A stretch of DNA of 64,000 nucleotides from an uncultured Armatimonadetes bacterium (GCA_963717145.1 OY970325.1:4640001-4704000); one strand, 5' to 3'. Positions 2,632 through 15,926 are shown, counted from the stretch's first letter. Numbers and translations: made by a program. Notes: generated from the sequence alone by a model not told the origin.

Positions 2632-2660
2632 TTGCTTTTCGGATTGCCCTATGCTATAAT
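2632..2660 (+). promoter_or_regulatory. Sigma70-type promoter of the transporter operon
   Basis: TTGCTT-N17-TATAAT with an extended -10 TG, 55 nt upstream of ATG 2716. Confidence 0.7.
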
Positions 2661-2715: not shown

Positions 2716-5700
2716 ATGACCAACCGTAGGGTTACCACACTCGTCTTCCTTCTGTGTTCGCTGCTGTCGTGCGCCTGTTTTGCGGCGCCCAAAACGAAGA
2801 TCGATCCCAAGCTTGCCAAGGTCTACCAGAGCCTCGCCGGGGACGTGAGGACCTCGAACCTCGCGAGCACAGTCGAACTGCTCGCCTCGAAGGGATCGCG
2901 CATCGCTGGCTATCCCGGATGCGAATCCGCCGGCGACTACATCCATCAGCAGTTCAAGAACATCGGCCTCAAGGACATCAAGCGCGAGCCGTTCTTCGCG
3001 ACGGTGCCGGTCGATGTCAGCGCGTCCCTCAAAGTGAACGGCAAGTCGTACAAGCTTCATTCCGTCTGGCCCAATCTGGTGCGGACCTCCCAGCTCCCGA
3101 AGGCTGGCATGAGCGGCCCGCTCATGTACGCCGGCTCAGGGAAGCTCTCCGCGTTCGACGGCTATCCAGTCGACGGCAGCATCGTTCTGATGGATTTCAA
3201 CTCCGGCTCGGAGTGGCTCAATGCACCGAGGCTCGGCGCGAAGGCGGTTGTATTCGTCGAGCCGGACACGACGATGCGCGGTGAGGCCGAAGCGAAGTTC
3301 ATCTCGATCCCGATCTCGATCCCCCGCTACTGGATCTCGAAAGCCGACGCGGCATCTCTCCAGGCGCTCTGTGCGAAGGGGATGCCCAAGGTCACGCTCG
3401 CCTGCGAGTCCAAGTGGGAGCGCCTCCCGACCAGCAACATCACAGGGGTCATCCCCGGCAGCGATCCCAAGTTGCGCGATCAGATAATCGTCATCCAGGC
3501 ATACTACGACGCGACCTCCGTCGTGCCGAGCCTCGCTCCCGGCGCAGAGAGCGCGTGCGGAATCGCCTCGCTGCTCGAACTGGCACGTGTGTACAAGAAT
3601 CATCCGCCCGCCCGAACGATCTGGTTCATTGCGACGAGCGGGCACTTCCAGAGCCTCCAGGGGATGCGCGAGTACCTGGAGAAGCACCTTCCCGAGTTGC
3701 AGTCGCCCGGAGCAGGCGCGAGGATGGGCGCATGGTTCAGCCGATGGGTCCCCGGCATGAAGCATCGCACGGTTCACAAGCCGCCGCAGATCTACCTCAT
3801 GGCCGGCCTCGACCTCTCGAGCCAGACGAAGGGCGTCGGCATCTTCTACAAGGGCTACTTCTACGATTTTCGAGAGGACATCCAGAACAAGTTTTCCGAC
3901 ATAGCGCGTGTCTGCCGCGAGAACTCCGAGAAGGTCGGCGCTGTCCTCGGCTTCGACTCGGCCAAGGCATTCGCGGACGGTGTGAACCCGATCGCGGGGA
4001 AGAACTGGCGGAACTTCATCCCCGGCAAGATCGCATGCGACGCGGAGGCATGGACACTCGCCGGCGCGCGCGGCATCTCGTTCATCAGCACCGATGACTC
4101 CCGCGCGATGGTGGACACCCCATTCGACACAGCGGACAAGGTCAACTTCGCGAACCTCGCCCAACAGACGAAGCTGCTCGCATGCCTGTTCAGCCACATT
4201 CTGAACGACACCAACGCTCCCGAGGCGGTCGATGTCTCCAAGTTCCCGATCACCGAGCCCTCGATCTTCTCCAGGATGACCCTCCAGGGCGGATTCGCGC
4301 GGATCGAGGGGCAGACGCTCATCCTGAACCTGAAGAAGGGCTTCATCCCGAACGATCCGGTGCTCGGCACGCTGGTCGTGATCCGGCACGTGTCCCTCAA
4401 CAAGACGCTGATGGGCGTTCGCGGCAATATGATCGGGATGGTCGACGACGAGGCGCGGTTCGCCTTCCCCGGCGCGGCCCCTCTGACGGCCTACCAGGGC
4501 GCGGCTCGGATGACGAACGTCGCGGCGTATAAGCTCGACCCGGCGGACGGCGAGATCATCTACTCGCCGGACATGGGGATCTTCGGCGCGGACTACTATC
4601 CGACCGCCGTCACTGTGGCTTCGGGGATCAAGAATATCCCGATCGTGCTCTTCAAGTGCAAGGCGACTTCCGTCTTCGATCTGATCGACCCGCAGGCGCT
4701 CCGGACACTCCCGGCGATCGAGATCTACGACGGCGACACGAACGGGCGGCCGAGGATGTACGGCTTCTCGCTCGCGGTCCCGGAATGGCAGGTATCGCAC
4801 GTCGAGGACGTGGCGGTCATCTTCACCATGCCGGAGACGCGCCTGAAGATCGTGATGGCGGCGGGACCGGCGGCGGTCAGGCTCGTGCTGATCAACTCGA
4901 CCGAGAAGGAGCCCGAGGGCAACGGGTACCTCGTCGGCAATGGGAAGGCGATCACGAACACATCGCTCAAGGTCGCCAAGGACATGTGGAACCTCGATGA
5001 GTTCCGCATCAGCCGCTTGCGAAAGTACCGGATCATCAACGAGGGAATCGACCAACTTCATTCCCTCGCGAAGAGCGAGATCGGTATGGCCGAGAGAGAC
5101 CTCGCGGCCATGCAGTACTCGACGTTCGATTCGCATTCGAGAGCCGCGTGGGGATATGAGGCACGAGCGTATCCTGACGTCCAGAAGACGGCGAAAGACG
5201 TAGTCAACGGAGTTCTATTCTACCTGGCGCTCCTCCTGCCGTTTTCGTACTTCTGCGAGAGGCTTTTCTTCGGATTCCCGGACCTGAAGCGCCAGATCGT
5301 CGGCGTGTTCATCGTCTTCGTGGCAATATTCATGCTGTTCAGGTACTTCCATCCGGCGTTCGACATCACGATGAATCCCGCGATTGTATTCATCGCGTTC
5401 ATCATGCTGGCGCTCAGCGTGCTGGTCACGGTACTCGTTACCAACAAATTCGAGGAGCAGCTCAAGGCGCTCAACCGGAGCATGTCCGGCGTACACAAGG
5501 TGGACATCGGCCGCATGAGCATCGCGGCGGCGGCGTTCTCGCTCGGCGTGTCGAACATGAGACGCCGAAAAGCGAGGACGGTCCTCACGTGTATCACCCT
5601 CGTCCTGCTGACTTTCACGGTCCTGTCGTTCACCTCGATCGTGCAGACGATGCGCTTCAACAAGGTGCCCGCTCCCGGCAAGCCGGGGTACAACGGCCTG

Positions 5701-7284
5701 ATGCTTCGGACCGCCATGTGGGAGCCGCTTCAGGAGCCGGCTGTCCGTCTGCTGAAGGACGAGTTCGGCGAGAGCAGGGCCGTCGCTCCGAGGGCATGGT
5801 TCTTCGGCGCGTTTCTCGGCGAGCAGACGTTCCTCACGCTCAAGCGCAATGACAAGACTTACGATGCCAAAGGCGCCGTCGGCCTCTCTCCGGACGAGGA
5901 TCGAGTCACCGGCGTCAGCAGGGCGCTCATCGCCGGACGATGGTTCAACGATCAAGACACTTATTCCGTAGTCATTCCCGGCGCGATAGCGACTGCACTC
6001 GAGATCACCAAGGGCGATATCGGGAAAGCCAAGCTGACCTTCAGCGGCGTCGATTACACAGTCATCGGCATCATGGACAATGCCAAGGTCAAGGCAATCA
6101 CGGATCTCGACAACGAGACGCTCACGCCGGTCGACTTCATCCTGATGAACAAGCTCACCTCACAGGGCAAGTCGATGGGCGAGGCGGGATTCCGCGAATA
6201 CACGCACCTCGAGCCGGACACCACCTTCTTCGTCCCGTACCAGACGCTGATCAACCTCGGCGGCGAGATCCGCTCCATTGCGATCGACTTCGTGACCCCC
6301 ACCGAGGTCAAGTCGGTGCTCGAGAAGCTGATGCCGAGACTCGGCCTCAACCTGTATGCGGGTCTGGATGAGCAAACATTCCGATTCAGCTCGATCGCCA
6401 CTCAGTCCGGCAAAGGATTCGGCGCAGTGTTCATCCCGATCCTGATCGCGGCATTGATTGTTCTGAACACGATGCTCGGATCGGTCTACGAGCGCATAAA
6501 GGAGATACACATCTTCAGCTCGCTAGGCCTGGCGCCGAATCACATCGCCATGCTCTTCATCGCAGAGGCGTTGGTCTATGCGATCCTCGGCGCGGTCGCC
6601 GGATACCTGATCGGGCAGATAGCATCAAAGATAATATATACGTTCGGCTTGCTCCCGGGGCTCTATCTCAACTTCAGCTCGCTCTCGGCGGTGCTCTCGA
6701 CGCTGATCGTCGTCGCCGTAGTGCTTCTCTCAACGATCTACCCGGCGAGGAAAGCATCCGAGGTCGCGACCCCCGCCATCGAGCGCAGTTGGAAGGTGCC
6801 GGACCCCGTGGGCGACATCTGGCAGATCAAGCTGCCGTTCGCGGTCACCGGCGAGCAGGCCATGGGCGTCACGAGCTTCATATCCGAGTGGTTTGGGGCG
6901 TATGAGGAGTACTCAGTCGGCGATTTCGTGACGCAGGATGTCAAGACCTCACTGCGTGAAACGGACTTCGGGGACGCGCATCGCGTCCAGTGCCGAGCGT
7001 GGCTGGCCCCGTTCGATCTCGGAGTCAGCCAGTATGTCACGCTGGAGACGGTGCCGACCGTGATGGAAGATGTCTACGAGGTTCAACTGATCATCAACCG
7101 CGAGAGCGGTGACATATCGAACTGGAAACGAGTGAACCGCAGGTTCCTCAACACTCTTCGGAAGCAGTTCCTGATCTGGCGGACGTTGAGGGCCGAGGAG
7201 CGCGACAAGTATCTGGCAGGCGGTCAGGCCGGTTCACCATCAGCCGGCGCGAGTGTCGCCGTAGAGCCGGGCCCGGCAGGATAG
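2716..7284 (+). CDS. Giant secreted/membrane protein: M28-like/PA domain fused to a MacB/FtsX-type ABC permease
   Basis: Signal peptide, then M28-like IQAYYD..PGAESACGIASLLELAR. TM helices and NMRRRKARTVLT precede a periplasmic domain and the FtsX motif SVYERIKEIHIFSSLG. 1522 aa. Confidence 0.8.
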   Translation: MTNRRVTTLVFLLCSLLSCACFAAPKTKIDPKLAKVYQSLAGDVRTSNLASTVELLASKGSRIAGYPGCESAGDYIHQQFKNIGLKDIKREPFFATVPVDVSASLKVNGKSYKLHSVWPNLVRTSQLPKAGMSGPLMYAGSGKLSAFDGYPVDGSIVLMDFNSGSEWLNAPRLGAKAVVFVEPDTTMRGEAEAKFISIPISIPRYWISKADAASLQALCAKGMPKVTLACESKWERLPTSNITGVIPGSDPKLRDQIIVIQAYYDATSVVPSLAPGAESACGIASLLELARVYKNHPPARTIWFIATSGHFQSLQGMREYLEKHLPELQSPGAGARMGAWFSRWVPGMKHRTVHKPPQIYLMAGLDLSSQTKGVGIFYKGYFYDFREDIQNKFSDIARVCRENSEKVGAVLGFDSAKAFADGVNPIAGKNWRNFIPGKIACDAEAWTLAGARGISFISTDDSRAMVDTPFDTADKVNFANLAQQTKLLACLFSHILNDTNAPEAVDVSKFPITEPSIFSRMTLQGGFARIEGQTLILNLKKGFIPNDPVLGTLVVIRHVSLNKTLMGVRGNMIGMVDDEARFAFPGAAPLTAYQGAARMTNVAAYKLDPADGEIIYSPDMGIFGADYYPTAVTVASGIKNIPIVLFKCKATSVFDLIDPQALRTLPAIEIYDGDTNGRPRMYGFSLAVPEWQVSHVEDVAVIFTMPETRLKIVMAAGPAAVRLVLINSTEKEPEGNGYLVGNGKAITNTSLKVAKDMWNLDEFRISRLRKYRIINEGIDQLHSLAKSEIGMAERDLAAMQYSTFDSHSRAAWGYEARAYPDVQKTAKDVVNGVLFYLALLLPFSYFCERLFFGFPDLKRQIVGVFIVFVAIFMLFRYFHPAFDITMNPAIVFIAFIMLALSVLVTVLVTNKFEEQLKALNRSMSGVHKVDIGRMSIAAAAFSLGVSNMRRRKARTVLTCITLVLLTFTVLSFTSIVQTMRFNKVPAPGKPGYNGLMLRTAMWEPLQEPAVRLLKDEFGESRAVAPRAWFFGAFLGEQTFLTLKRNDKTYDAKGAVGLSPDEDRVTGVSRALIAGRWFNDQDTYSVVIPGAIATALEITKGDIGKAKLTFSGVDYTVIGIMDNAKVKAITDLDNETLTPVDFILMNKLTSQGKSMGEAGFREYTHLEPDTTFFVPYQTLINLGGEIRSIAIDFVTPTEVKSVLEKLMPRLGLNLYAGLDEQTFRFSSIATQSGKGFGAVFIPILIAALIVLNTMLGSVYERIKEIHIFSSLGLAPNHIAMLFIAEALVYAILGAVAGYLIGQIASKIIYTFGLLPGLYLNFSSLSAVLSTLIVVAVVLLSTIYPARKASEVATPAIERSWKVPDPVGDIWQIKLPFAVTGEQAMGVTSFISEWFGAYEEYSVGDFVTQDVKTSLRETDFGDAHRVQCRAWLAPFDLGVSQYVTLETVPTVMEDVYEVQLIINRESGDISNWKRVNRRFLNTLRKQFLIWRTLRAEERDKYLAGGQAGSPSAGASVAVEPGPAG

Positions 7285-7300
7285 GGGGGAAGACGCAGAT

Positions 7301-9298
7301 TTGGCTACTGAAACAGATGCCATGGAAAACGTCAGGGAACGCATAGAGGAGGGGACGGACACCGGCGAACCGACAAAGTTCGAAGACGGGTTCACTATCA
7401 AGACCGTCATCGGTGCGCTCTTCGTCGTCCTCTTCATGCTGCCCGGAGCGCTCTACCTGGGACTGGTCGCGGGTCAGGACCTTGGCCCGGCGGCGCAGTG
7501 GGTCACCATCGTGCTATTCGCCGAGGTCGCCCGGCGATCTTTCGTGCCTCTCAAGCGACAGGAGATCTACATCCTCTGGTACGTCGCAGGCGCGCTGGCG
7601 CACCTCACGTTGGCCGATAGGGGACTCTCCGGCGGAGCATTCAGCGGCCTGATATGGAACCAATACTTTGTCCAATCCCCTCAGGCCCAGTCGCTCGTGA
7701 ACGAGATTCCTCGATGGGTCGTCCCCGCTCCCGGCAGCCGCGCGCTCATCGAGCGGACGTTCTTGGACTCCGCGTGGGTGGTCCCCATCCTGCTCCTGGT
7801 GGTCTACGAGATTCTCGGGCGACTGAACTGGATCGGTCTGGGATACGTCCTATTCCGCATCACGTCGGACACGGAGCGACTGCCCTTCCCGATGGCGCCC
7901 GTCGCGGCGTCCGGGGCGACCGCCCTGGCGGAGGCGTCATCCAAGGAGGAGTCGTGGAGGTGGCAGGTCTTCTCCATCGGCACGATGGTCGGTCTGGTCT
8001 TCGGGTTCTTCTATCTCGCTGTGCCGATCTTCACGGGGGTGGTCCTCAGTAAACCGCTGATGATCATACCGATTCCGTTCATAGATTTCACGCGCAACAC
8101 CGAGACTATCCTGCCGGGCGCGCCAACGGGAATCAGCGGCGACCTCGGCAACATACTGATCGGCTTCGTGATTCCATTCGAGATCATGGCCGGGCAGGTG
8201 ATTACGTCGATAGCCTGTCAGGTCATCGGAAACCCGATACTCCAGAAACAGGGCTTGCTGCCCACGTGGCGGTACGGCATGGGCACGATCGAGACCAACC
8301 TCTCGACCAGCATCGACTTCTGGTTGAGTGTCGGCATCGGCGTTGGCGTTGCTGTCGGGATCATCGGCATCGTCAGCGTGGTAGTCGGCGCCAGAAAGGC
8401 TCAACGGGCGATGAGGGAGCGACGGACGGCGGCGTATACCATCCCCGCAGGGCGCGGTGATTTCCCAATCCAGCTCGCGATCGGCGCATGGCTCTTTGCG
8501 ACGGTTTCGTACATCGTGATCGCACATAGACTGGTGCCGGCATTCCCGCTGATATTCCTCATCGGCTTCGGCCTCTTCTACTCGCCGCTGATGTCCTACA
8601 TATCGGCGAGAATGATCGGTCTGACCGGCGGCGGTGTCGGCTTCCCGTTTGTGAAGGAGGCCGTTGTCATCAAGAGCGGCTACCAGAAGGCGGATATCTG
8701 GTTCGCCCCGATCCCGATGTACGATATGGGTGGGGCCGCCCAGAGGTTCCGCGAGATCGAGCTGACCGGCACCAAATTCACGAGCATTCTCAAGGCGGAA
8801 CTCTTCATGGTCCCGGTCATGCTGATATCGAGTTTCCTGTACTGGGCGTTCTTCTGGCACACAAGCCCGGTCCCGTCGCCGCAGTTCCCATTCGCGCAGA
8901 AGTTCTGGCCTCTGCACGCGACGATGCAGAGCATCTGGATGACGGCGAACAAGCCTGGAGGAAGTAACTTCTTTATGCAGGCGCTGAAGCCCAACATAGC
9001 CGTATATGGAGGCCTGGCGACTTTCGGACTGCTCGGAGCGACAGCGGCGCTCAAACTGCCGATTCTGTACTTCTATGGAATGGCGAGCGGTGTCGGAGCA
9101 ATCCCACACGGCGTCATCCCGAGGTTCGCCGGAGCGCTCCTCGGGCGTTACTACTTCGCGAGGCGGTTCGGCCTGGAGAACTGGCAGAAATACACCCCGG
9201 TGCTGCTCGCCGGGTTCTTCTGTGGGATGGGCCTGATGGGGATGAGTTCCATCGCACTCGCGCTCATATCGAAGTCGGTATCGTACCTGCCCTACTAG
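7301..9298 (+). CDS. OPT-like polytopic membrane transporter (putative peptide transporter)
   Basis: 665 aa, many TM helices, ERLPFPMAPV motif typical of OPT-related proteins. Start could be ATG 7322. Confidence 0.7.
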   Translation: MATETDAMENVRERIEEGTDTGEPTKFEDGFTIKTVIGALFVVLFMLPGALYLGLVAGQDLGPAAQWVTIVLFAEVARRSFVPLKRQEIYILWYVAGALAHLTLADRGLSGGAFSGLIWNQYFVQSPQAQSLVNEIPRWVVPAPGSRALIERTFLDSAWVVPILLLVVYEILGRLNWIGLGYVLFRITSDTERLPFPMAPVAASGATALAEASSKEESWRWQVFSIGTMVGLVFGFFYLAVPIFTGVVLSKPLMIIPIPFIDFTRNTETILPGAPTGISGDLGNILIGFVIPFEIMAGQVITSIACQVIGNPILQKQGLLPTWRYGMGTIETNLSTSIDFWLSVGIGVGVAVGIIGIVSVVVGARKAQRAMRERRTAAYTIPAGRGDFPIQLAIGAWLFATVSYIVIAHRLVPAFPLIFLIGFGLFYSPLMSYISARMIGLTGGGVGFPFVKEAVVIKSGYQKADIWFAPIPMYDMGGAAQRFREIELTGTKFTSILKAELFMVPVMLISSFLYWAFFWHTSPVPSPQFPFAQKFWPLHATMQSIWMTANKPGGSNFFMQALKPNIAVYGGLATFGLLGATAALKLPILYFYGMASGVGAIPHGVIPRFAGALLGRYYFARRFGLENWQKYTPVLLAGFFCGMGLMGMSSIALALISKSVSYLPY

Positions 9299-9302
9299 CA
9301 CT

Positions 9303-9331
9303 TTGACATCGGGCCTTGAAGCCTATAAAAT
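9303..9331 (+). promoter_or_regulatory. Internal sigma70 promoter, likely giving a leaderless mRNA
   Basis: TTGACA-N17-TAAAAT, 6 nt before ATG 9338, with no SD sequence. Confidence 0.7.
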
Positions 9332-9337
9332 ACAAGT

Positions 9338-10240
9338 ATGAGCAAAAACAACCCGCACGCCCTGGTAGCATGGCAGGGGGTCACCATCGAGGCCCCGGCT
9401 GATTGGAGCCTCGCATCGATCAGTGGTGACGAGAAGTCCGGCTACTACCGGGTCTCCAGTCCCGGCACGGCGGCCGTCGAGGTTCGGTGGTCCGAGGCAT
9501 CAGAGAAGGTCGACCTCGCCTCCAAGCTGGACACCTACCTGAGAGACCTCGAGCGCAAGTCTCGCAAGCAGCGGCTCGACTTCCAGAGCAAGGTTCGAGA
9601 GAAGGACGGGGACCTGCTCTTCACCTGGCGCGCCGACCGCAAGGCCGAGGGACGCCTCTATCGGTGTTCCGAGTGCAAGCGCGCGGTGATTGTGCAGGTC
9701 AGCGGAGTGCCGGGCGATCCGGTCTCGGCAGTCGCATCATTCGTGCTGCCCTCCGTAAGGGACCATGCCGAGGGCGGGTGGCGCACCTGGGCGATGTACG
9801 ACCTGCAGGCGGATGTGCCTCAGGGGTACAGGCTCGAGAAGCACAAGTTGATGTCGGGGTACCTACAGCTTCAGTTTCGAAAGGGAAGCTGCCAGCTCAT
9901 CATCGAGCGCTGGGGTCTTGCCAATATCGCTCTGAAGAAGGCGACCTTGGCCGAGTGGTTCCGCCAGCGGATGCGCACCGACCTGACCGGTTTTGCGTAT
10001 AAAGTAGAGGACCTGACCGACGAGCCGGAGCCCGCGGTTCAGGCGATCGGGCGAAGGTCGGGAATCCTGGGGATCTACCGGACCATCGGGGATCTGACCA
10101 AGCTCCGCGTGCCGGCGATGAGGCTCGATACATACGCCTGGGTGTGCGAGGAATCGAACAAGATCTACGCCGCGCAGAGCATGCATACGGCGAAGGAACG
10201 CATCCTGGAAGACGTGATAGCAAGAGTAGAGTGCCACTGA
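9338..10240 (+). CDS. Hypothetical soluble protein with two similar halves
   Basis: 300-aa ORF within the operon. AWQGVTIEAPADWSL and AMYDLQADVPQGYRL look like internal repeats. Confidence 0.75.
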   Translation: MSKNNPHALVAWQGVTIEAPADWSLASISGDEKSGYYRVSSPGTAAVEVRWSEASEKVDLASKLDTYLRDLERKSRKQRLDFQSKVREKDGDLLFTWRADRKAEGRLYRCSECKRAVIVQVSGVPGDPVSAVASFVLPSVRDHAEGGWRTWAMYDLQADVPQGYRLEKHKLMSGYLQLQFRKGSCQLIIERWGLANIALKKATLAEWFRQRMRTDLTGFAYKVEDLTDEPEPAVQAIGRRSGILGIYRTIGDLTKLRVPAMRLDTYAWVCEESNKIYAAQSMHTAKERILEDVIARVECH

Positions 10241-10241
10241 C

Positions 10242-10709
10242 ATGGGTGCGGTTTACAATATAGTCTCGCAGTACGTGCCGTTCATACGAAAGAAGCCGGT
10301 CGTCGACCGGGAGAAGGCGCTGAGGGCGATTCCTATTCGCCATCCGCAGGTGCGGTTCGAGCGCAACGAGGAGGGCGACATCTGCCTGTACCTCCCCCGG
10401 CGCAAGGATCGGTTCGCCCGGGCACTGATGTTCATATTTCGAGCCCCGCCCGAGAAGGAGATCGTGCTTGACGAGGTCGGCTCGGATGTCTGGGATCTGT
10501 GCGACGGTGAAAACACTGTCGAGGCGATCGTAAGTGCTGTCGCGAAGAAGTACAAGATCACACGGAGGGAATGCGAAACCTCCATCGGCGTATACCTGAA
10601 GACTCTCGGCGAGCGCCACCTCGTCGGATTGCGGATGGCCAGTCGTCCCGAGGCTCGGAAGCCCGAAGCGTCGCCGATTCGGCCGCGAAAGATACGAAGA
10701 AGACAATGA
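10242..10709 (+). CDS. PqqD family / RiPP-recognition-element-like protein
   Basis: LDEVGSDVWDLCDGENTVEAIV...YLKTLGERHLV wHTH pattern of PqqD. Confidence 0.8.
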   Translation: MGAVYNIVSQYVPFIRKKPVVDREKALRAIPIRHPQVRFERNEEGDICLYLPRRKDRFARALMFIFRAPPEKEIVLDEVGSDVWDLCDGENTVEAIVSAVAKKYKITRRECETSIGVYLKTLGERHLVGLRMASRPEARKPEASPIRPRKIRRRQ

Positions 10710-11338
10710 ACAATACCAATGGAAGTGAAGCTGTCGGCCGGCAGGTCCAACTGCCGCTGAAGAAGGCTTTCGAGATCAGCCTGAGGAGCATCAAGATCAG
10801 GTTCTGGCGGTCGATGATCACGGCCGGGGGGATCATGCTCGGGATCGCGTTCCTCACATCGGTGCTGACGACGACGCTGATCCAGTCGCATTTGCCGGAT
10901 GCCGCGATGGATGCGAAAGCGCTCCAGGCCGCACAGAACCGTCAGATTTGGCTTGTCATCATGTCGCTGCTCGTGTGTACCGTCGGCATCACCAATTCGA
11001 TGCTGATGTCGGTAACCGAGCGCTACAAGGAGATCGGGACGATGAAGTGCCTCGGAGCGCTCGACAGCTTTGTCGTGGAGCTGTTCATTCTGGAATCCGG
11101 CATGCTGGGAGTCATCTCATCGTTCATCGGGTGGTCCATCGGCGCCGGGGGCATCCTGCTGCTGGCGATCGGCGGCCATGGGGTGGCGATCGTTGGCAAG
11201 ATCGGGATCCTTCCGATCCTCGGCACGCTTGGAATTGCGATGCTCGTTGGGGTCAGTCTCACGATGATCGCGACGATTGCGCCCGCCGTCCGAGCGGCCA
11301 AGATGCCACCCGCCATGGCACTCAGGGCGGAGATCTAG
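10706..11338 (+). CDS. Minimal FtsX-like ABC permease lacking a large periplasmic domain
   Basis: ATGA overlap with the pqqD-like gene; GITNSMLMSVTERYKEIGTMKCLGA; C-terminal PAVRAAKMPPAMALR. Confidence 0.85.
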   Translation: MNNTNGSEAVGRQVQLPLKKAFEISLRSIKIRFWRSMITAGGIMLGIAFLTSVLTTTLIQSHLPDAAMDAKALQAAQNRQIWLVIMSLLVCTVGITNSMLMSVTERYKEIGTMKCLGALDSFVVELFILESGMLGVISSFIGWSIGAGGILLLAIGGHGVAIVGKIGILPILGTLGIAMLVGVSLTMIATIAPAVRAAKMPPAMALRAEI

Positions 11339-11342
11339 AGAC

Positions 11343-11484
11343 AAATCAGAAATTCGAAGCTCGAAATTCGAAACAAACCGCAAATCAGGAGAACTGCGAA
11401 AGAAGCAAACGGTTGTTTTCCCGCATTTTCGGATTCCGGTGATTGCTTCTTTGTTTCGAGTTTCGATATTCGTGCTTCGAATTT
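11343..11484. repeat. Miniature inverted-repeat element built from TTCGAAA-like heptamers
   Basis: aaattcgaagctcgaaattcgaaacaaa (11350-11377) pairs imperfectly with tttgtttcgagtttcgatattcgtgcttcgaattt (11450-11484). Confidence 0.7.
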
Positions 11485-11501
11485 CCAGAGGGTGAAAAAC
11501 A

Positions 11502-12242
11502 ATGTCGGCAAACGAATATGTAGTCAGAACGAAGGACGTTGCCAAGGAATTCACCATGGGCGACCAAGTCCTGCGCGCGCTCGATGGAGTGCATCTGGAC
11601 ATCCGCCGAGGTGAATACATATCCATCATGGGCCCGTCCGGCTCCGGGAAGTCCACGCTCTTCAATATGATCGGTGGGCTGGACAAGCCGAGCGAGGGCT
11701 CGGTCTTCATCAACGATGTCGACATGGCACAGCTCGACGCGCAGGAACTTGCGTACCTGCGCTGCCGCACCATCGGCTACATATTCCAGTCGTTCAACCT
11801 GATCCCCGTCATGACCGCGCTGGAGAACGTCACCCTCCCGATGATCTTTGCCGGCACACCCACCGAGGAGGCCAGCGAGAAAGGCATGGGACTCCTGAAG
11901 TTGGTCGGTCTCGGCGATCGGTTGTTCCACAAGCCGACCGAGCTTTCCGGCGGGCAGCAGCAGCGTGTGGCCATCGCCCGGTCGTTCGCCAACGACCCCG
12001 CGATCATCCTTGCCGACGAGCCCACGGGTAACCTCGACCTCAAGACCGGCAAGGACATCATCCTGCTGCTGAAAGAACTCAACAAGATTCGCGGCGTCAC
12101 AATCATTTCCGCGACCCACGACCTGAAAATGGTTGATGTCTCTGACCGCGTCGTATGGATTCGCGATGGTAAGATCGAGCGAATCGAAGAGCGCTCTGAC
12201 CTCGACCTGAAGGTCGGCGAGATGGAAGGCGTCGACGAGTAG
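11502..12242 (+). CDS. ABC transporter ATP-binding protein (LolD/MacB-like)
   Basis: Walker A GPSGSGKS, signature LSGGQQQRV, ILADEPTGNLD, and H-loop ATHD. Confidence 0.95.
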   Translation: MSANEYVVRTKDVAKEFTMGDQVLRALDGVHLDIRRGEYISIMGPSGSGKSTLFNMIGGLDKPSEGSVFINDVDMAQLDAQELAYLRCRTIGYIFQSFNLIPVMTALENVTLPMIFAGTPTEEASEKGMGLLKLVGLGDRLFHKPTELSGGQQQRVAIARSFANDPAIILADEPTGNLDLKTGKDIILLLKELNKIRGVTIISATHDLKMVDVSDRVVWIRDGKIERIEERSDLDLKVGEMEGVDE

Positions 12243-12317: not shown

Positions 12318-12355
12318 AGGGCGATGGAGACATTCTCCGTCGCCCTATTGTTATT
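12318..12355 (+). terminator. Probable intrinsic terminator
   Basis: Stem agggcgatggaga/tctccgtcgccct followed by an AT-rich tail. Confidence 0.55.
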
Positions 12356-12395: not shown

Positions 12396-12424
12396 TTGAC
12401 GGGAGGCGAAACTTAACGTAGAAT
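12396..12424 (+). promoter_or_regulatory. Sigma70-type promoter
   Basis: TTGACG-N17-TAGAAT upstream of ATG 12503. Confidence 0.65.
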
Positions 12425-12502: not shown

Positions 12503-15500
12503 ATGACTAAGAACCAATCGCTGATGCGGCTTTCCATAGCTCTCATGATCGCGGTACTTGCCGTGTGTTGCATGGGTACTGCCAGGGCCGATGAATACCG
12601 AGCTTTGTGGGTTGACGCGTGGGGAAACGGTTTCCTCAGCCAGTCGCAGGTCGACGCTCTCCTCGGCGTCGTTGGTAGTGCGACGAACAGGGGGACCATT
12701 CGAGACGCGAACTGCAACATGGTGATCGTGCAGGTACGGCGGCGCGCCGATGTCTGCTACCCCTCCGGCATGGGCGAGCCATATTTCTCCGGCCTGAGTC
12801 CCTCCAACTTCAATGCACTGCAGGCGATGATCAACGCCGCGCACGACACCACCGGCGGCAAGCAGCGGATCGAGGTCCACTGCTGGATGATCCCCTTCCG
12901 GAACGGCGGGAATTCTGTATATCAGGCCCACAACGACACACCAACCGGGAGCCTTACCAATCTCGATAACTATTGGCCCACGCGCAACTCGTCCGGCGCA
13001 GAGGTTGATGGGGGCGCATTCGACCCGGGCCATCCCAAGTGCGAGGAGTACCTGACTGACGTTTTTCTGGACGTGGCCACCAACTTCGACGTTGACGGAA
13101 TACATTACGACTACATCCGCTTCACGGGGAGCACCGAGGGATATAACCCCACGAGCGTAGCCAGGTACAACGCGCGCTATGGCCTCACCGGGCAGCCGGC
13201 GTCGACAAACGAGCAGTGGAAGCAGTGGCGCCGCGATCAGGTGACTGCGTTCGTTCGCAGAGTCTACGCCAAAGTGCAGGCCGTCGCGCCGAACGTGAGG
13301 GTATCGGGCTCGTTCGTCACATGGAATCCCTCACCGGCAGCTTCGACCAGGGCTGCCTTCCAGGGCACTCGGCCTTACTATGACGTCTTCTCCGATTGGG
13401 ACGCCTGGATGGAAGAAGGCATCGTGGACATGGCCGTCCCGATGACGTACTACGACCTGGCGCTTCTGCCGAACGACTACGTAAGATGGATCAACTTCGA
13501 GAAGGACCGCAAGTTCAACCGGCACATGATCATAGGCCCGGGGATCTACCATAACGTCGCCATGCAGGATGCGCTGACGGAGCTTCTGATGACGCGCACG
13601 CCCTCACCCGCCGGCAACTACGCGCAGGGATGGGCCGGTTACTCGTACCGCGTTCCCTGGACCGGCGGTACGTGGCCGGAGTTTGCTCCGTATCTGGTAG
13701 CGCAAGTGACCCCGACGCCGGACAACATCCCGACTATGCCATGGAAGACAAGTCCCACCAAGGGACACATGAGCGGAACGGTGACGTACACGAACGGCGC
13801 ATGGGCGGACGGCGCGACGGCGAGCATCACGGGCACTGAGAGCCGGACGATGACCTGCGACGGCACAGGGTTCTTCGCATTCATCGATGTCACCCCGGGT
13901 CCGTACACCCTGACGATCAGCAAGGCAGGGTATCCGAATATTCAGGTACCGGTGACCGTAGCGATTGGCGCAGTGACGGGGAACATGTATGTTACCGACG
14001 TGGTGATGTCCGAGTCCGATCCCACTCCGGTCATATCGAACGTTGGGGCAACGGGTGTGACAAACGGCTCCGCAACGATCAACTGGACGACCGACTTGGC
14101 CTCATCGAGCCAAGTCGAGTATGGGACGACTACCGCCTACGGAATGCTGACTACGCTCGACAGCACACCGGTGACATCCCATTCGGTGGGGCTCTCCGGG
14201 CTGGCTCAGAATCAGACCCATCACTACCGGGTCCTCTCCGCCAACGCGAACGGCACATCGACGTCCAACGACTACACATTCACGACCCTCGGCCCTCCGA
14301 CCATTACCAGCGGGCCCCTGGTCATTCCTACTCAGACGACGGCGACGATCACGTGGACCACGAACTCCGCGGCGAGTGGGCTGGTCAACTACGGGGCGAC
14401 ATCGTCATACGGAAGCCAGGTTGTCGATCCCAACTCGAGCACGACATCACACTCCGTGACGATCACAGGACTGACGGCCTCGACGCCGTACCACTATCAG
14501 TGTGTTAGCGCGAACGCCTACGGAAGCGTCCAGACGACGGACAACACGTTCACGACCTCGTCCACAACGCCTGATGTCATCGTGGATAACACCGATCCGG
14601 GGTGGACCAATACATCTCCGGGCGGCAACACCTGGTCCGCCGGGTCGGCTGCCGGCGTGCCTAAGATCGGGAGCAACTACCTGTACCGCGCTGGAGATGC
14701 ATCGCTTACCGAGTCGAGCATTACCAGGAAGTGCCGTTGGACACCGAGCTTGCCCACAGCAGGCACCTATGATGTCTATGCGTATTACCAGAAGGGCACA
14801 AACCGGAATACCGCCGCGCCCTACAAGGTGTACTACAACGGCGGCAACGCCACCAGTGTTCAGAACCAGTACCAGACGGAACCGAACGGGGGCGCATGGT
14901 TCCTGATCGGGCAGGATCTTCCGTTCGCGGCGGGAAGCGCAGGGTACGTCGAACTGACGACTTGTTCGATGGACACCAGGTATGTCAGCGCCGATGCCGC
15001 CAAGTGGGTATACAAGGCCGCTGCCGATTCGACCGCTCCTGTCATGATCTCGGTCACCGACGACATGTACACTACGTCTGCGACGAGCCTGCAGGCATCG
15101 TGGAGTGCGTCCGATCCCGAGAGTGCTATCACCCGCTACGATTATGCGGTTGGATCATCGGCCGGGTTGATCGATGTCAAGGGCTGGACGAACGCCGGCA
15201 CTTCGACTTCCGCCACGATCACGGGCCCGAGTTTCGCGGTGGGGTCCACCTACTACATCTCGGTACGCGCCGTGAACACCTGGGGACTCGTCTCCCTGCC
15301 CATGGCCTCCACAGGAGTCACAGTGGCACGGACCGTGGCGAACATCGCAGATGCAAAGGGCTTCGCGAATACCACGCCGGTCTGCATTCCGCTTACCGTC
15401 GTGAGCGCCAAGTTCCCGACGGCGTTCTACATGCAGGACGCCGAGCCGCGCATCGGGCATCCGAGTGGAGTCGGCTTCCGGCCTCTCGCAGGACGATACC

Positions 15501-15926
15501 GTCCTGGTGTACGGACGACTCGGCCTCGTAAACGGATGCGAGAGAGCCCTGCTGAACTGCAAGATCATACCGGGCGCGCCTGGAGATCCCGTTGAGCCGT
15601 TCCTGATCAATGCGAGGGCGGCCGGCGGCGAGCCGTTTGGAGGCTACACACCCGGAATCACCGGCGGGAACGGCCTGAACAATGTCGGAATGCTGGTCGT
15701 GATGGCGGGTTCGGTGACCGCGCTGACCTCCGATGGGTTCTACCTGCAGGACGGATCCGGCTTGCAGGATGATTCCGCCAACGCCGGTATCAAGGTCTGG
15801 ACCGGCGCACCCGACTCCGCATCCCAGAACGACATTGTGATCGTCACGGGTATTGTCTCCTGCAGGGTCGGCACGGGTGGCGTGATCTACCCGATGATCC
15901 TTGCCAGGGACATCCTGCCCCGGTAG
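12503..15926 (+). CDS. Secreted glycoside hydrolase-like family 10 (GHL10/DUF187) protein with carboxypeptidase-regulatory-like, FN3 and golvesin-like domains and an OB-like C-terminal module; +1 frameshift near 15445
   Basis: EYRALWVDAW, QVRRRAD, VDGIHYDYIRF and WRRDQVT motifs. The reading continues as ..ASGIRVESASG.. in ORF 15465..15926. Confidence 0.8.

Follow-up and report, generated by a model that had tools for sequence, protein, structure and literature searches.

We have identified, in a 64,000-nucleotide (nt) stretch of DNA from an uncultured Armatimonadetes bacterium (GCA_963717145.1 OY970325.1:4640001-4704000; hereafter the window, which sits in a 5.37-Mb single-contig Armatimonadota genome), a cassette of six genes that encodes a type VII (MacB/FtsX-fold) ATP-binding cassette (ABC) system whose combination of partners is without precedent. 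The analysis confirms that positions 2716-12242 hold a real six-gene membrane machine, with no function assigned as yet, which is present in most Armatimonadota; the system is widespread and uncharacterised. Open reading frame (ORF) calling recovered six ORFs, all on the plus strand, exactly where an earlier reading of the sequence (the original prediction) had placed six co-oriented genes, and the cassette is single-copy in its own genome. In order, the genes encode a giant with a peptidase-like ectodomain and an FtsX module (gene 1), an OPT-like permease (gene 2), a cytoplasmic protein (gene 3), a PqqD/RRE-family protein (gene 4), a small FtsX permease (gene 5) and an ABC ATPase (gene 6). 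Pfam agrees with four of the domain calls that had been made (M28-FtsX, PqqD/RRE, mini-FtsX and ABC ATPase) and assigns no family to genes 2 and 3. No cassette protein reaches a curated NCBIfam equivalog, the scores all being far under the cut-offs, and full-text literature searches, supplementary files excepted, found no description of the six-gene combination; both results bear out the earlier statement that the cluster matches no characterised transporter.

The genes are closely spaced. From gene 1 to gene 5 the intergenic distances are 16, 39 and 1 nt and, when ATG 10706 is taken as the start of gene 5, an overlap of 4 nt; the gap between genes 5 and 6 is 163 nt. This ATG, which overlaps the gene 4 stop, is probably the true start, since the gene 5 homologues in the nearest families are 203-220 amino acids (aa) long. 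Similarly, because the database copy of gene 2 has 658 aa, its start may be ATG 7322.

The assignment to type VII depends on three features that occur together in the cassette, namely an FtsX four-helix domain, a Porter/Sabre domain (in the giant) and a cognate ATPase with intact motifs. In gene 1, Pfam places MacB_PCD at aa 955-1139 (36.6 bits) and FtsX at aa 1237-1348, and in gene 5 it places FtsX at aa 128-247; the two FtsX scores are 58.7 and 60.1 bits against a cut-off of 25.5. Gene 6 matches ABC_tran with 115 bits, and the Walker A, signature, Walker B and H-loop motifs are all intact in its translation; its nearest NCBIfam models are LolD, YbbA, MacB, DarD and FtsE, each under its cut-off. 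The gene 5 protein of this genome has a short loop between its first two transmembrane helices (TM1 and TM2) and lacks a Porter/Sabre domain. Some of its homologues (L017-L024, L026 and L028) are 431-651 aa long because TM1 and TM2 are separated by an insert of 230-440 aa, to which no Pfam family could be assigned, and the 'mini' FtsX of this genome is a reduced form of a gene that is found larger in other families. The giants of other families of the class are also longer, reaching 2243 aa, and neither these nor the larger 'mini' FtsX proteins of the relatives yielded further Pfam domains.

The giant has an elaborate architecture around this core. A hydropathy scan places a signal peptide at aa 6-24 and the FtsX helices at aa 958-976, 1236-1254, 1277-1307 and 1323-1341, a topology in which aa 25-828 and the MacB core lie outside the cytoplasmic membrane and the last ~180 residues inside. 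The N-terminal signal peptides of the giants are of the ordinary kind; a Tat signal and a lipobox were both considered and rejected, the RR of the signal peptide and the Cys being unconserved among the 62 homologues. An AlphaFold2 model of aa 506-1522 (38 homologues; mean predicted local distance difference test score, pLDDT, 80) arranges the rest of the protein as one or more beta-sandwich domains, a three-helix stalk, the membrane helices, the Porter/Sabre domain and a C-terminal alpha+beta domain. The FtsX/MacB module matches MacB, LolC, YtrF and LolF among PDB sequences, and the structural matches point the same way: VIA gives the membrane module Z values of 16.1 with YtrEF, 15.4 with 5xu1, 15.2 with MacB, 14.0 with FtsEX, 13.9 with HrtBA, 13.2 with LolCDE and 12.4 with YbbAP, and the Porter/Sabre domain matches the periplasmic domains of MacB, YknZ, LolC and LolE with Z values of 11.5-12.6. 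In the cytoplasmic coupling helix, E1259, R1260 and I1264 do not vary among the 38 aligned giants, some of which come from loci with no ATPase gene nearby. Outside the core, the beta-sandwich resembles the transthyretin-like domain II of carboxypeptidase D (VIA Z 8.5), and the stalk region matches helical bundles and PIGS (Z ~10). Kinship of the stalk with PIGS, of the glycosylphosphatidylinositol (GPI) transamidase, was rejected, as many helical bundles score a Z equal to its 10.8 over 86 residues. For the C-terminal domain the VIA matches were the METTL16 VCR (Z 8.4) and the Bet v 1-like protein At1g24000 (Z 8.1), and no fold was adopted from them, as this range is that of common arrangements.

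The head of the giant is related to M28 aminopeptidases, with a pocket of its own. Pfam finds Peptidase_M28 at aa 241-324 (38.5 bits), covering only profile positions 1-80 of 193; among PDB sequences, the first 840 residues match the PA-domain M28 aminopeptidases 2ek8 (1.8e-11) and YwaD (2.5e-7), and aa 215-328 match Nicalin (3.1e-5). We read the site from the 2ek8 alignment together with 62 full-length giants of several phyla, at the positions that we take to be equivalent to the canonical M28 zinc-binding and catalytic residues. In gene 1 the site consists of Y263, D265, E278, H310, F311, D366 and D442/E444. The complete set of di-zinc ligands (H, D, E, D, H) and catalytic Glu is absent from the 62 aligned giants: the first zinc His is Y, F or S in 60 of them, the Asp-Asp pair has become Glu/Asp-x, the Glu-Glu pair has become His followed by F, Y, H or other residues and never by Glu, and no giant has His at the last ligand position. 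Of the canonical residues, the giants keep D366 and D265 only. The residues now found in the pocket are nonetheless conserved (D265 in 62/62 giants, an acidic residue at 278 in 59/62, H310 in 61/62 and D366 in 61/62), which argues that the pocket is altered and not decayed; it may serve for binding, or it may hold a single metal in a non-canonical manner.

Gene 2 is placed, on indirect support, in the OPT superfamily, as part of a divergent branch that would lie outside PF03169 proper, because 23 of 49 diverse full-length homologues match Pfam OPT PF03169 (best 1.7e-20) and because its closest Atlas clusters are OPT or peptide-transporter clusters. The earlier label 'OPT-like' thus holds through transitive homology. 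The family is large (3304 of 8000 scored candidates matched, and it comprises 947 matching clusters at 50% identity), a few of its members carry the NCBI name 'peptide transporter', and its invariant motif is D/H-x-E-R/K-L-P-F-P-M/L-A. Neither a profile of the OPT-like homologues run against PDB sequences nor single-sequence searches gave anything useful. A number of longer relatives (811-1083 aa; P0218, P0219, P0223, P0224, P0229, P0233 and P0235) have an insert near residue 550; it occupies a single loop and is a Reg_prop or WD40 beta-propeller, a PDZ or an FGE-sulfatase-like domain. As all of these are ligand- or protein-binding modules, the family would seem to have a tendency to acquire capture domains. 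The same genome also encodes about 12 DUF6785 (PF20581) membrane proteins of 620-730 aa, which Atlas places near OPT (outside the window, for example, at G000:C1:5219590-5221746, 599925-601976 and 1826055-1828031). Many of their genes adjoin those of large proteins of secreted type (FG-GAP/propeller, M6 peptidase, F5/8 type C), of a GH42 beta-galactosidase, of PmbA/TldD and of transporters of the MFS or SSF type, a setting that suggests uptake roles for the DUF6785 proteins in polymer-degradation clusters.

Genes 3 and 4 encode the cytoplasmic side of the system. Gene 3 has 89 relatives in a large protein database and no family at the sequence level in Pfam, NCBIfam or database searches; it lacks a signal peptide, which indicates a cytoplasmic location. 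Its model (pLDDT 92) shows two tandem domains, the first of which matches PsbP (2xb3) with a VIA Z of 13.0 (134 of 155 residues aligned, root-mean-square deviation 3.4 A), followed by Mog1 (11.8), DcrB (11.4), the type VI secretion system (T6SS) immunity protein TplEi (11.1) and the Eag-type chaperone SciW (9.7). The alpha-beta-alpha sandwich of the PsbP/Mog1 fold extends across the whole domain, and Foldseek gives a probability of 1.00 to PsbP and TplEi; the second domain has the same kind of fold with weaker matches (Z 6.5-6.9). In an alignment of 33 relatives C110, C113, H143, C270, C299 and H300 are invariant, a pattern which suggests a probable zinc site. Gene 4 matches Pfam PqqD at aa 74-128 (nt 10461-10625; 47.5 bits against a cut-off of 23.4), conserves the typical W-x-x-x-D-G motif and has, in addition, a conserved, family-specific 70-residue N-terminal extension and a basic tail. 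A complex prediction for the two proteins scored 0.09 against a mark of 0.32, a result that counts neither for nor against an interaction. At one locus (L045:13397-14503, in a 5-Mb chromosome-level Armatimonadetes assembly) the PqqD domain and the small FtsX form one 368-aa frame; this is a single case in which an assembly error is possible. A search with gene 4 as the query found no fused PqqD forms, and it is a weak search, as the known L045 fusion is only 35% identical to the query.

The PqqD domain raises the question of whether the cassette is a biosynthesis or export cluster for a ribosomally synthesized and post-translationally modified peptide (RiPP), with gene 4 as the leader-peptide recognition element. 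The score above the Pfam cut-off and the identity of the nearest NCBIfam model, the lasso-peptide PqqD chaperone, would fit such a role. However, that model gives 36.3 against a cut-off of 80, and all other specific NCBIfam PqqD models are likewise under their cut-offs; moreover, the 48 complete cassettes described below share no RiPP maturase, radical SAM enzyme, YcaO, protease or precursor, either internally or in their flanks, as the original prediction had stated for the cluster itself, and near-universal presence in a phylum is unlike natural-product clusters. We regard a RiPP cluster as extremely improbable.

Comparison with other genomes shows that the six genes are a conserved unit. 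We fetched 20 loci around gene 2 homologues from related genomes, and 19 of these hold all six genes in the same order, far beyond chance; in the remaining locus gene 3 is missing and gene 4 is weak. In a wider set of 100 loci, made up of these 20 and the best 80 of 565 loci with one genome per species, some of them ended by contig edges, 48 hold all six genes. Co-occurrence in other genomes, the lack of which had been named as a result that would refute the proposal of a joint system, is therefore found. The conserved unit is confined to the six genes: across the 48 complete loci, a gene family of the flanks recurs at 7 at most. A search for gene 3, the cassette-specific gene, detected it in 239 of the 301 genomes of Armatimonadota (190 of the 238 of high quality) and in 123 of 159 genera.

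Beyond this phylum the linkage takes other forms. The giant lies directly upstream of the OPT-like gene at loci of Planctomycetota (Brocadiia), Gemmatimonadota, Latescibacterota, Nitrospiraceae, Hydrogenedentota, Ratteibacteria and Desantisbacteria, and outside Armatimonadota genes 3-6 are often more than 10 kb from the giant-OPT pair. Five genomes with the giant and OPT-like genes only at the locus all have a small FtsX homologue elsewhere (43-49% identity), and four of the five have gene 3 elsewhere, so that in these tested genomes the ABC module is located at another site; similarly, five of five genomes with a lone OPT-like gene hold one to three giants at other places. In a tree of 103 OPT-like proteins (midpoint-rooted, with no clade test) the genes that stand 'alone' fall into three clades within the giant-linked ones, and this nesting suggests that linkage of giant and OPT-like gene is the older state. 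The giant is present in 33 of 33 sampled genomes of the phylum-level group to which the genome of locus L079 belongs (G315-G349), mostly with three matches each; the matches in this group number 2 to 11 per genome and lie at separate places on the chromosome, some being fragments of one gene. These distributions suggest that the cassette is divided into two modules, one of genes 1-2 and one of genes 3-6, which are unlinked in other phyla.

Two modules might mean two unrelated neighbouring systems, one being the giant-OPT pair and the other the small FtsX-ATPase pair with its two cytoplasmic partners. This explanation would accommodate the Brocadiia, where genes 3-4-5-6 form their own cluster (L121) and genes 1-2 lie apart (L083), as well as the many loci with genes 1-2 alone and the fusion of PqqD to the small FtsX and not to the giant. 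It would also accommodate the internal promoter-like site. The original prediction placed all six genes under one promoter, and upstream of gene 1 there is indeed a perfect TATAAT (2655-2660); however, the best promoter-like site of the region in a consensus scan, at 9303-9331, sits between genes 2 and 3, and the single promoter is therefore unverified and doubtful. The predicted terminator, in contrast, has a counterpart in a 13-pair hairpin downstream of gene 6. Nevertheless, we consider two unrelated systems very unlikely, because the gene order is fixed across the phylum, because one Latescibacterota and one Gemmatimonadetes genome carry a second giant-OPT pair followed by genes 3-4 without genes 5-6, because each tested genome with one module also held the other, and because the giant has no ATPase gene of its own and yet keeps an invariant coupling-helix motif.

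What the analysis establishes is the anatomy and topology of the proteins, an ATPase with intact motifs, a pocket that is altered yet conserved, a relationship to OPT and the genetic linkage of all the parts; on this we base a model in which the cassette is an ATP-assisted device for the capture and import, or the sensing, of an envelope-side or environmental peptide. In this model the gene 6 ATPase would power an FtsX pair made of the giant and the small FtsX, as LolD drives LolC and LolE. The motion would run through the periplasmic core domain and the stalk to the peptidase-like head, an FtsX-EnvC arrangement in a single chain, and on the outer side of the cytoplasmic membrane the head would bind a peptide-like ligand, which it might also trim or release. 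Import of this ligand would then fall to the OPT-like permease encoded next to the giant, and the RRE/PsbP-like pair would bind it after import or signal back to the ABC module. The original prediction, which is partly supported, likewise supposed that the giant and the mini-FtsX would pair as a heterodimer, drive the OPT-like protein and pass the cargo to the RRE. We hold this model tentatively, as a real possibility that falls somewhat short of an even chance. Its most novel version would be a new type of hybrid transporter, in which a type VII ABC system with a nicalin/nicastrin-like receptor head is the ATP-driven capture arm of an OPT-type permease and the RRE/PsbP-like zinc pair reads the imported peptide; this version, taken by itself, we find doubtful.

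Several observations weigh against capture and import. Gene 2 itself matches no Pfam family (E up to 0.1) and no NCBIfam or OPT model, and the folds of genes 3 and 4, PsbP/Mog1 and RRE, serve for binding in general and point to no particular ligand. Genes 3-6 can sit apart from genes 1-2, and the promoter-like site divides the two groups, which might act separately. The substrate, the direction of transport and the contacts between the proteins are what we infer, and to our knowledge MacB-type systems act as exporters, extractors and regulators, not as helpers of importers. In addition, five Armatimonadota loci (L039, L041, L042, L059 and L077; e.g. L041:12038-12253) have a TatA/B/E-family gene of 68-78 aa between genes 2 and 3, and three of three tested match Pfam TatA_B_E (1e-17 to 1e-19). 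At the same position seven Chthonomonadales loci (L043, L046, L048, L051, L052, L055 and L061) have a multi-TM ORF of 270-288 aa, for which no Pfam family was found in the four of seven that were scanned. The import model leaves the TatA and the ~275-aa membrane-protein inserts unexplained.

The TatA genes would find a place in a system of LolCDE/MacB-style export or extraction, in which the RRE and PsbP/Eag-like proteins hold a cargo that crosses the membrane through the OPT-like protein or Tat, and is then released or processed on the outside by the FtsX pair and ectodomain. Expulsion or extraction is what type VII systems are known for, and both cytoplasmic folds occur in chaperones that keep peptides ready for processing or export (RRE; SciW/Eag and DcrB, Z 9.7-11.4). 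On the other hand, the cassette of the window has no TatA, the gene being located elsewhere in the genome, and no conserved small ORF or cargo gene is found in or beside the cassette, where the gap ORFs are TatA or unrelated membrane proteins. All characterised OPT members known to us work as importers. In the source consulted, they are described as peptide and iron-siderophore transporters (PMC3061005). With these points against it, we judge export or extraction to be decidedly unlikely.

Whatever its cargo, the cassette is near-core in a poorly studied phylum, and its giant-OPT core pair occurs in at least six other phyla. If its function were solved, the range of processes that FtsX-type motors are known to power would become wider, a large orphan branch of OPT-superfamily proteins (the 947 clusters mentioned above) would acquire a function, and a role for an RRE outside RiPP pathways would be defined. 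If the hybrid-transporter version of the capture-and-import model were true, the cassette would be the first ABC-assisted OPT importer and a bacterial counterpart of the eukaryotic M28-like 'gatekeeper' ectodomains.

The coordinates of the genes, domains and sequence signals are collected in Table 1. The spacer between genes 5 and 6 is a long imperfect palindrome (-53.6 kcal/mol), and its core motif, GAAATTCGAA, has 66 copies genome-wide. A run of GAATGCG repeats, related to the spacer motif, lies at 2540-2580 upstream of gene 1, and the two look like members of a family of intergenic elements similar to repetitive extragenic palindromes or miniature inverted-repeat transposable elements (REP/MITE). 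On the minus strand at 1938-2504, and divergent from gene 1, is a gene for a hemerythrin-domain protein; on the plus strand at 12503-15595 is a gene for a 1030-aa GHL10/Golvesin_C/fn3 multidomain protein, with its own promoter-like site at 12396-12424. Neither of these is a conserved neighbour of the cassette.

Table 1. Genes, domains and sequence signals of the six-gene cassette (positions in the window)
Feature	Position	Strand	Description
Putative promoter, gene 1	2632-2660	+	TTGCTT-17 nt-TATAAT; read from the sequence, not returned by the consensus scan; weak
Gene 1	2716-7284	+	1522-aa giant: signal peptide, PA/M28-like ectodomain, MacB_PCD, FtsX
PA and M28-like domain	2851-4245	+	gene 1, aa 46-510; non-canonical conserved site
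Beta-sandwich domain(s) and three-helix stalk	4297-5268	+	gene 1, aa 528-851; AlphaFold2 model
Three extra TM helices before the FtsX module	5200-5439	+	gene 1, aa 829-908; hydropathy, helical in the model
FtsX/MacB module (TM1, Porter/Sabre core, TM2-4)	5587-6738	+	gene 1, aa 958-1341; Pfam, PDB sequences, VIA
Cytoplasmic C-terminal alpha+beta domain	6811-7191	+	gene 1, aa 1366-1492; model
Gene 2	7301-9298	+	665-aa polytopic permease, divergent, assigned to the OPT superfamily; start perhaps ATG 7322
Internal promoter-like site	9303-9331	+	TTGACA-17-TAAAAT, 11/12; between genes 2 and 3
Gene 3	9338-10240	+	300-aa cytoplasmic protein; tandem PsbP/Mog1 fold, invariant Cys/His
Gene 4	10242-10709	+	155-aa PqqD/RRE-family protein
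Gene 5	10706-11338	+	~210-aa FtsX permease without periplasmic domain; longest ORF from 10571
Long hairpin from genome-wide repeated motif	11339-11501	+	intergenic, genes 5/6
Gene 6	11502-12242	+	246-aa LolD/MacB-type ABC ATPase
Terminator-like hairpin	12318-12346	+	13 pairs, T-rich tail; 3' of gene 6

Among characterised systems, FtsEX with EnvC, PcsB or RipC, a type VII ABC regulator of cell-wall hydrolases, offers a close parallel to the layout of the giant. Both combine an ATPase of the LolD/FtsE kind with a four-helix FtsX module that carries a periplasmic domain, and in the cassette too, as in FtsEX-EnvC, a helical stalk leads to a peptidase-like domain without canonical catalytic residues. 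In contrast to FtsEX, the stalk and head are within the FtsX polypeptide itself, the head is M28/PA-like and not LytM/CHAP, and the giant is extended by three further TM helices and by a C-terminal domain in the cytoplasm; the cassette also adds a second FtsX without an ectodomain, an OPT-like permease and two cytoplasmic proteins. The FtsX equivalog models give only 12.7-31.8 bits against cut-offs of 225-255, and the FtsE model gives 204.7 against 264.85. The resemblance could nevertheless mean that the cassette is an FtsEX-EnvC-like envelope regulator in one chain, in which ATP-driven movement of the stalk would expose or conceal the head, the head would activate or restrain a separate hydrolase of the wall or surface, and the OPT-like protein would only recycle the products or act as a scaffold. 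The combination of FtsX fold, long stalk and non-canonical peptidase-like domain is the layout of FtsX plus EnvC, and near-core presence in the phylum is what housekeeping work at the envelope would produce; however, no hydrolase gene is conserved beside the cassette, no flank family exceeding 7 of 48 loci, the constant OPT-type neighbour and the two cytoplasmic binding proteins are left unexplained, and the substitutions in the pocket show the conservation expected of a functional site for binding or catalysis. We therefore consider a regulator of this kind unlikely.

The capture-and-import model draws its motor from a second parallel, the lipoprotein-releasing system LolCDE, which likewise combines two different FtsX-type permeases with one ATPase gene. 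The best NCBIfam neighbour of gene 6 is LolD (229 bits), and the giant matches LolC in both sequence and fold. These scores are all short of the equivalogs (LolD 229 against 307.75; lolCE 27.9 and 33.6 bits against 362), and the cassette differs from LolCDE in that one of its FtsX proteins, in the genome studied here, is without any periplasmic domain and in that there is no LolA/LolB context. The best structural matches of the giant fall among the other type VII ABC systems, MacB, YtrEF, YbbAP, HrtBA and BceAB, with YtrEF at the top (Z 16.1). Compared with the MacB group, the cassette has no membrane-fusion or outer-membrane partner gene among its six genes, the flanking genes not having been scanned against domain libraries. 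We know of no member of this group that is coupled to an OPT permease, and literature searches found no report of an OPT-coupled type VII ABC system.

The remaining components can be compared in the same manner. Gene 2 is similar in size and polytopic build to the OPT family (PF03169; Transporter Classification (TC) 2.A.67), which, in the account consulted, moves peptides and iron-siderophores (PMC3061005), and differs from it in falling under no OPT model, in having its own invariant motif and in being genetically tied to an FtsX giant. Gene 4 is distinguished from other PqqD proteins and RREs by having no partner maturase or precursor, by its N-terminal extension and by the one homologue that is fused to FtsX, and gene 3 differs from PsbP, Mog1, DcrB and Eag (SciW) in having two domains in tandem and six invariant Cys/His residues. 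For the head of the giant the comparison is with eukaryotic proteins: Nicalin, nicastrin and GPAA1-type proteins are M28-like non-peptidase receptors of membrane complexes, and the giant shares with them an M28-like domain without canonical zinc ligands, located on the non-cytoplasmic side of a multi-pass membrane assembly. Unlike them, the giant is bacterial, is fused to an ABC-type permease and has a pocket formed by a conserved acidic/His set; its kinship with Nicalin may amount to common descent from PA-domain aminopeptidases only, the best matches being 2ek8 and YwaD. Together, these comparisons place each part of the cassette in or near a known fold or family, and it is their combination that is without described precedent.

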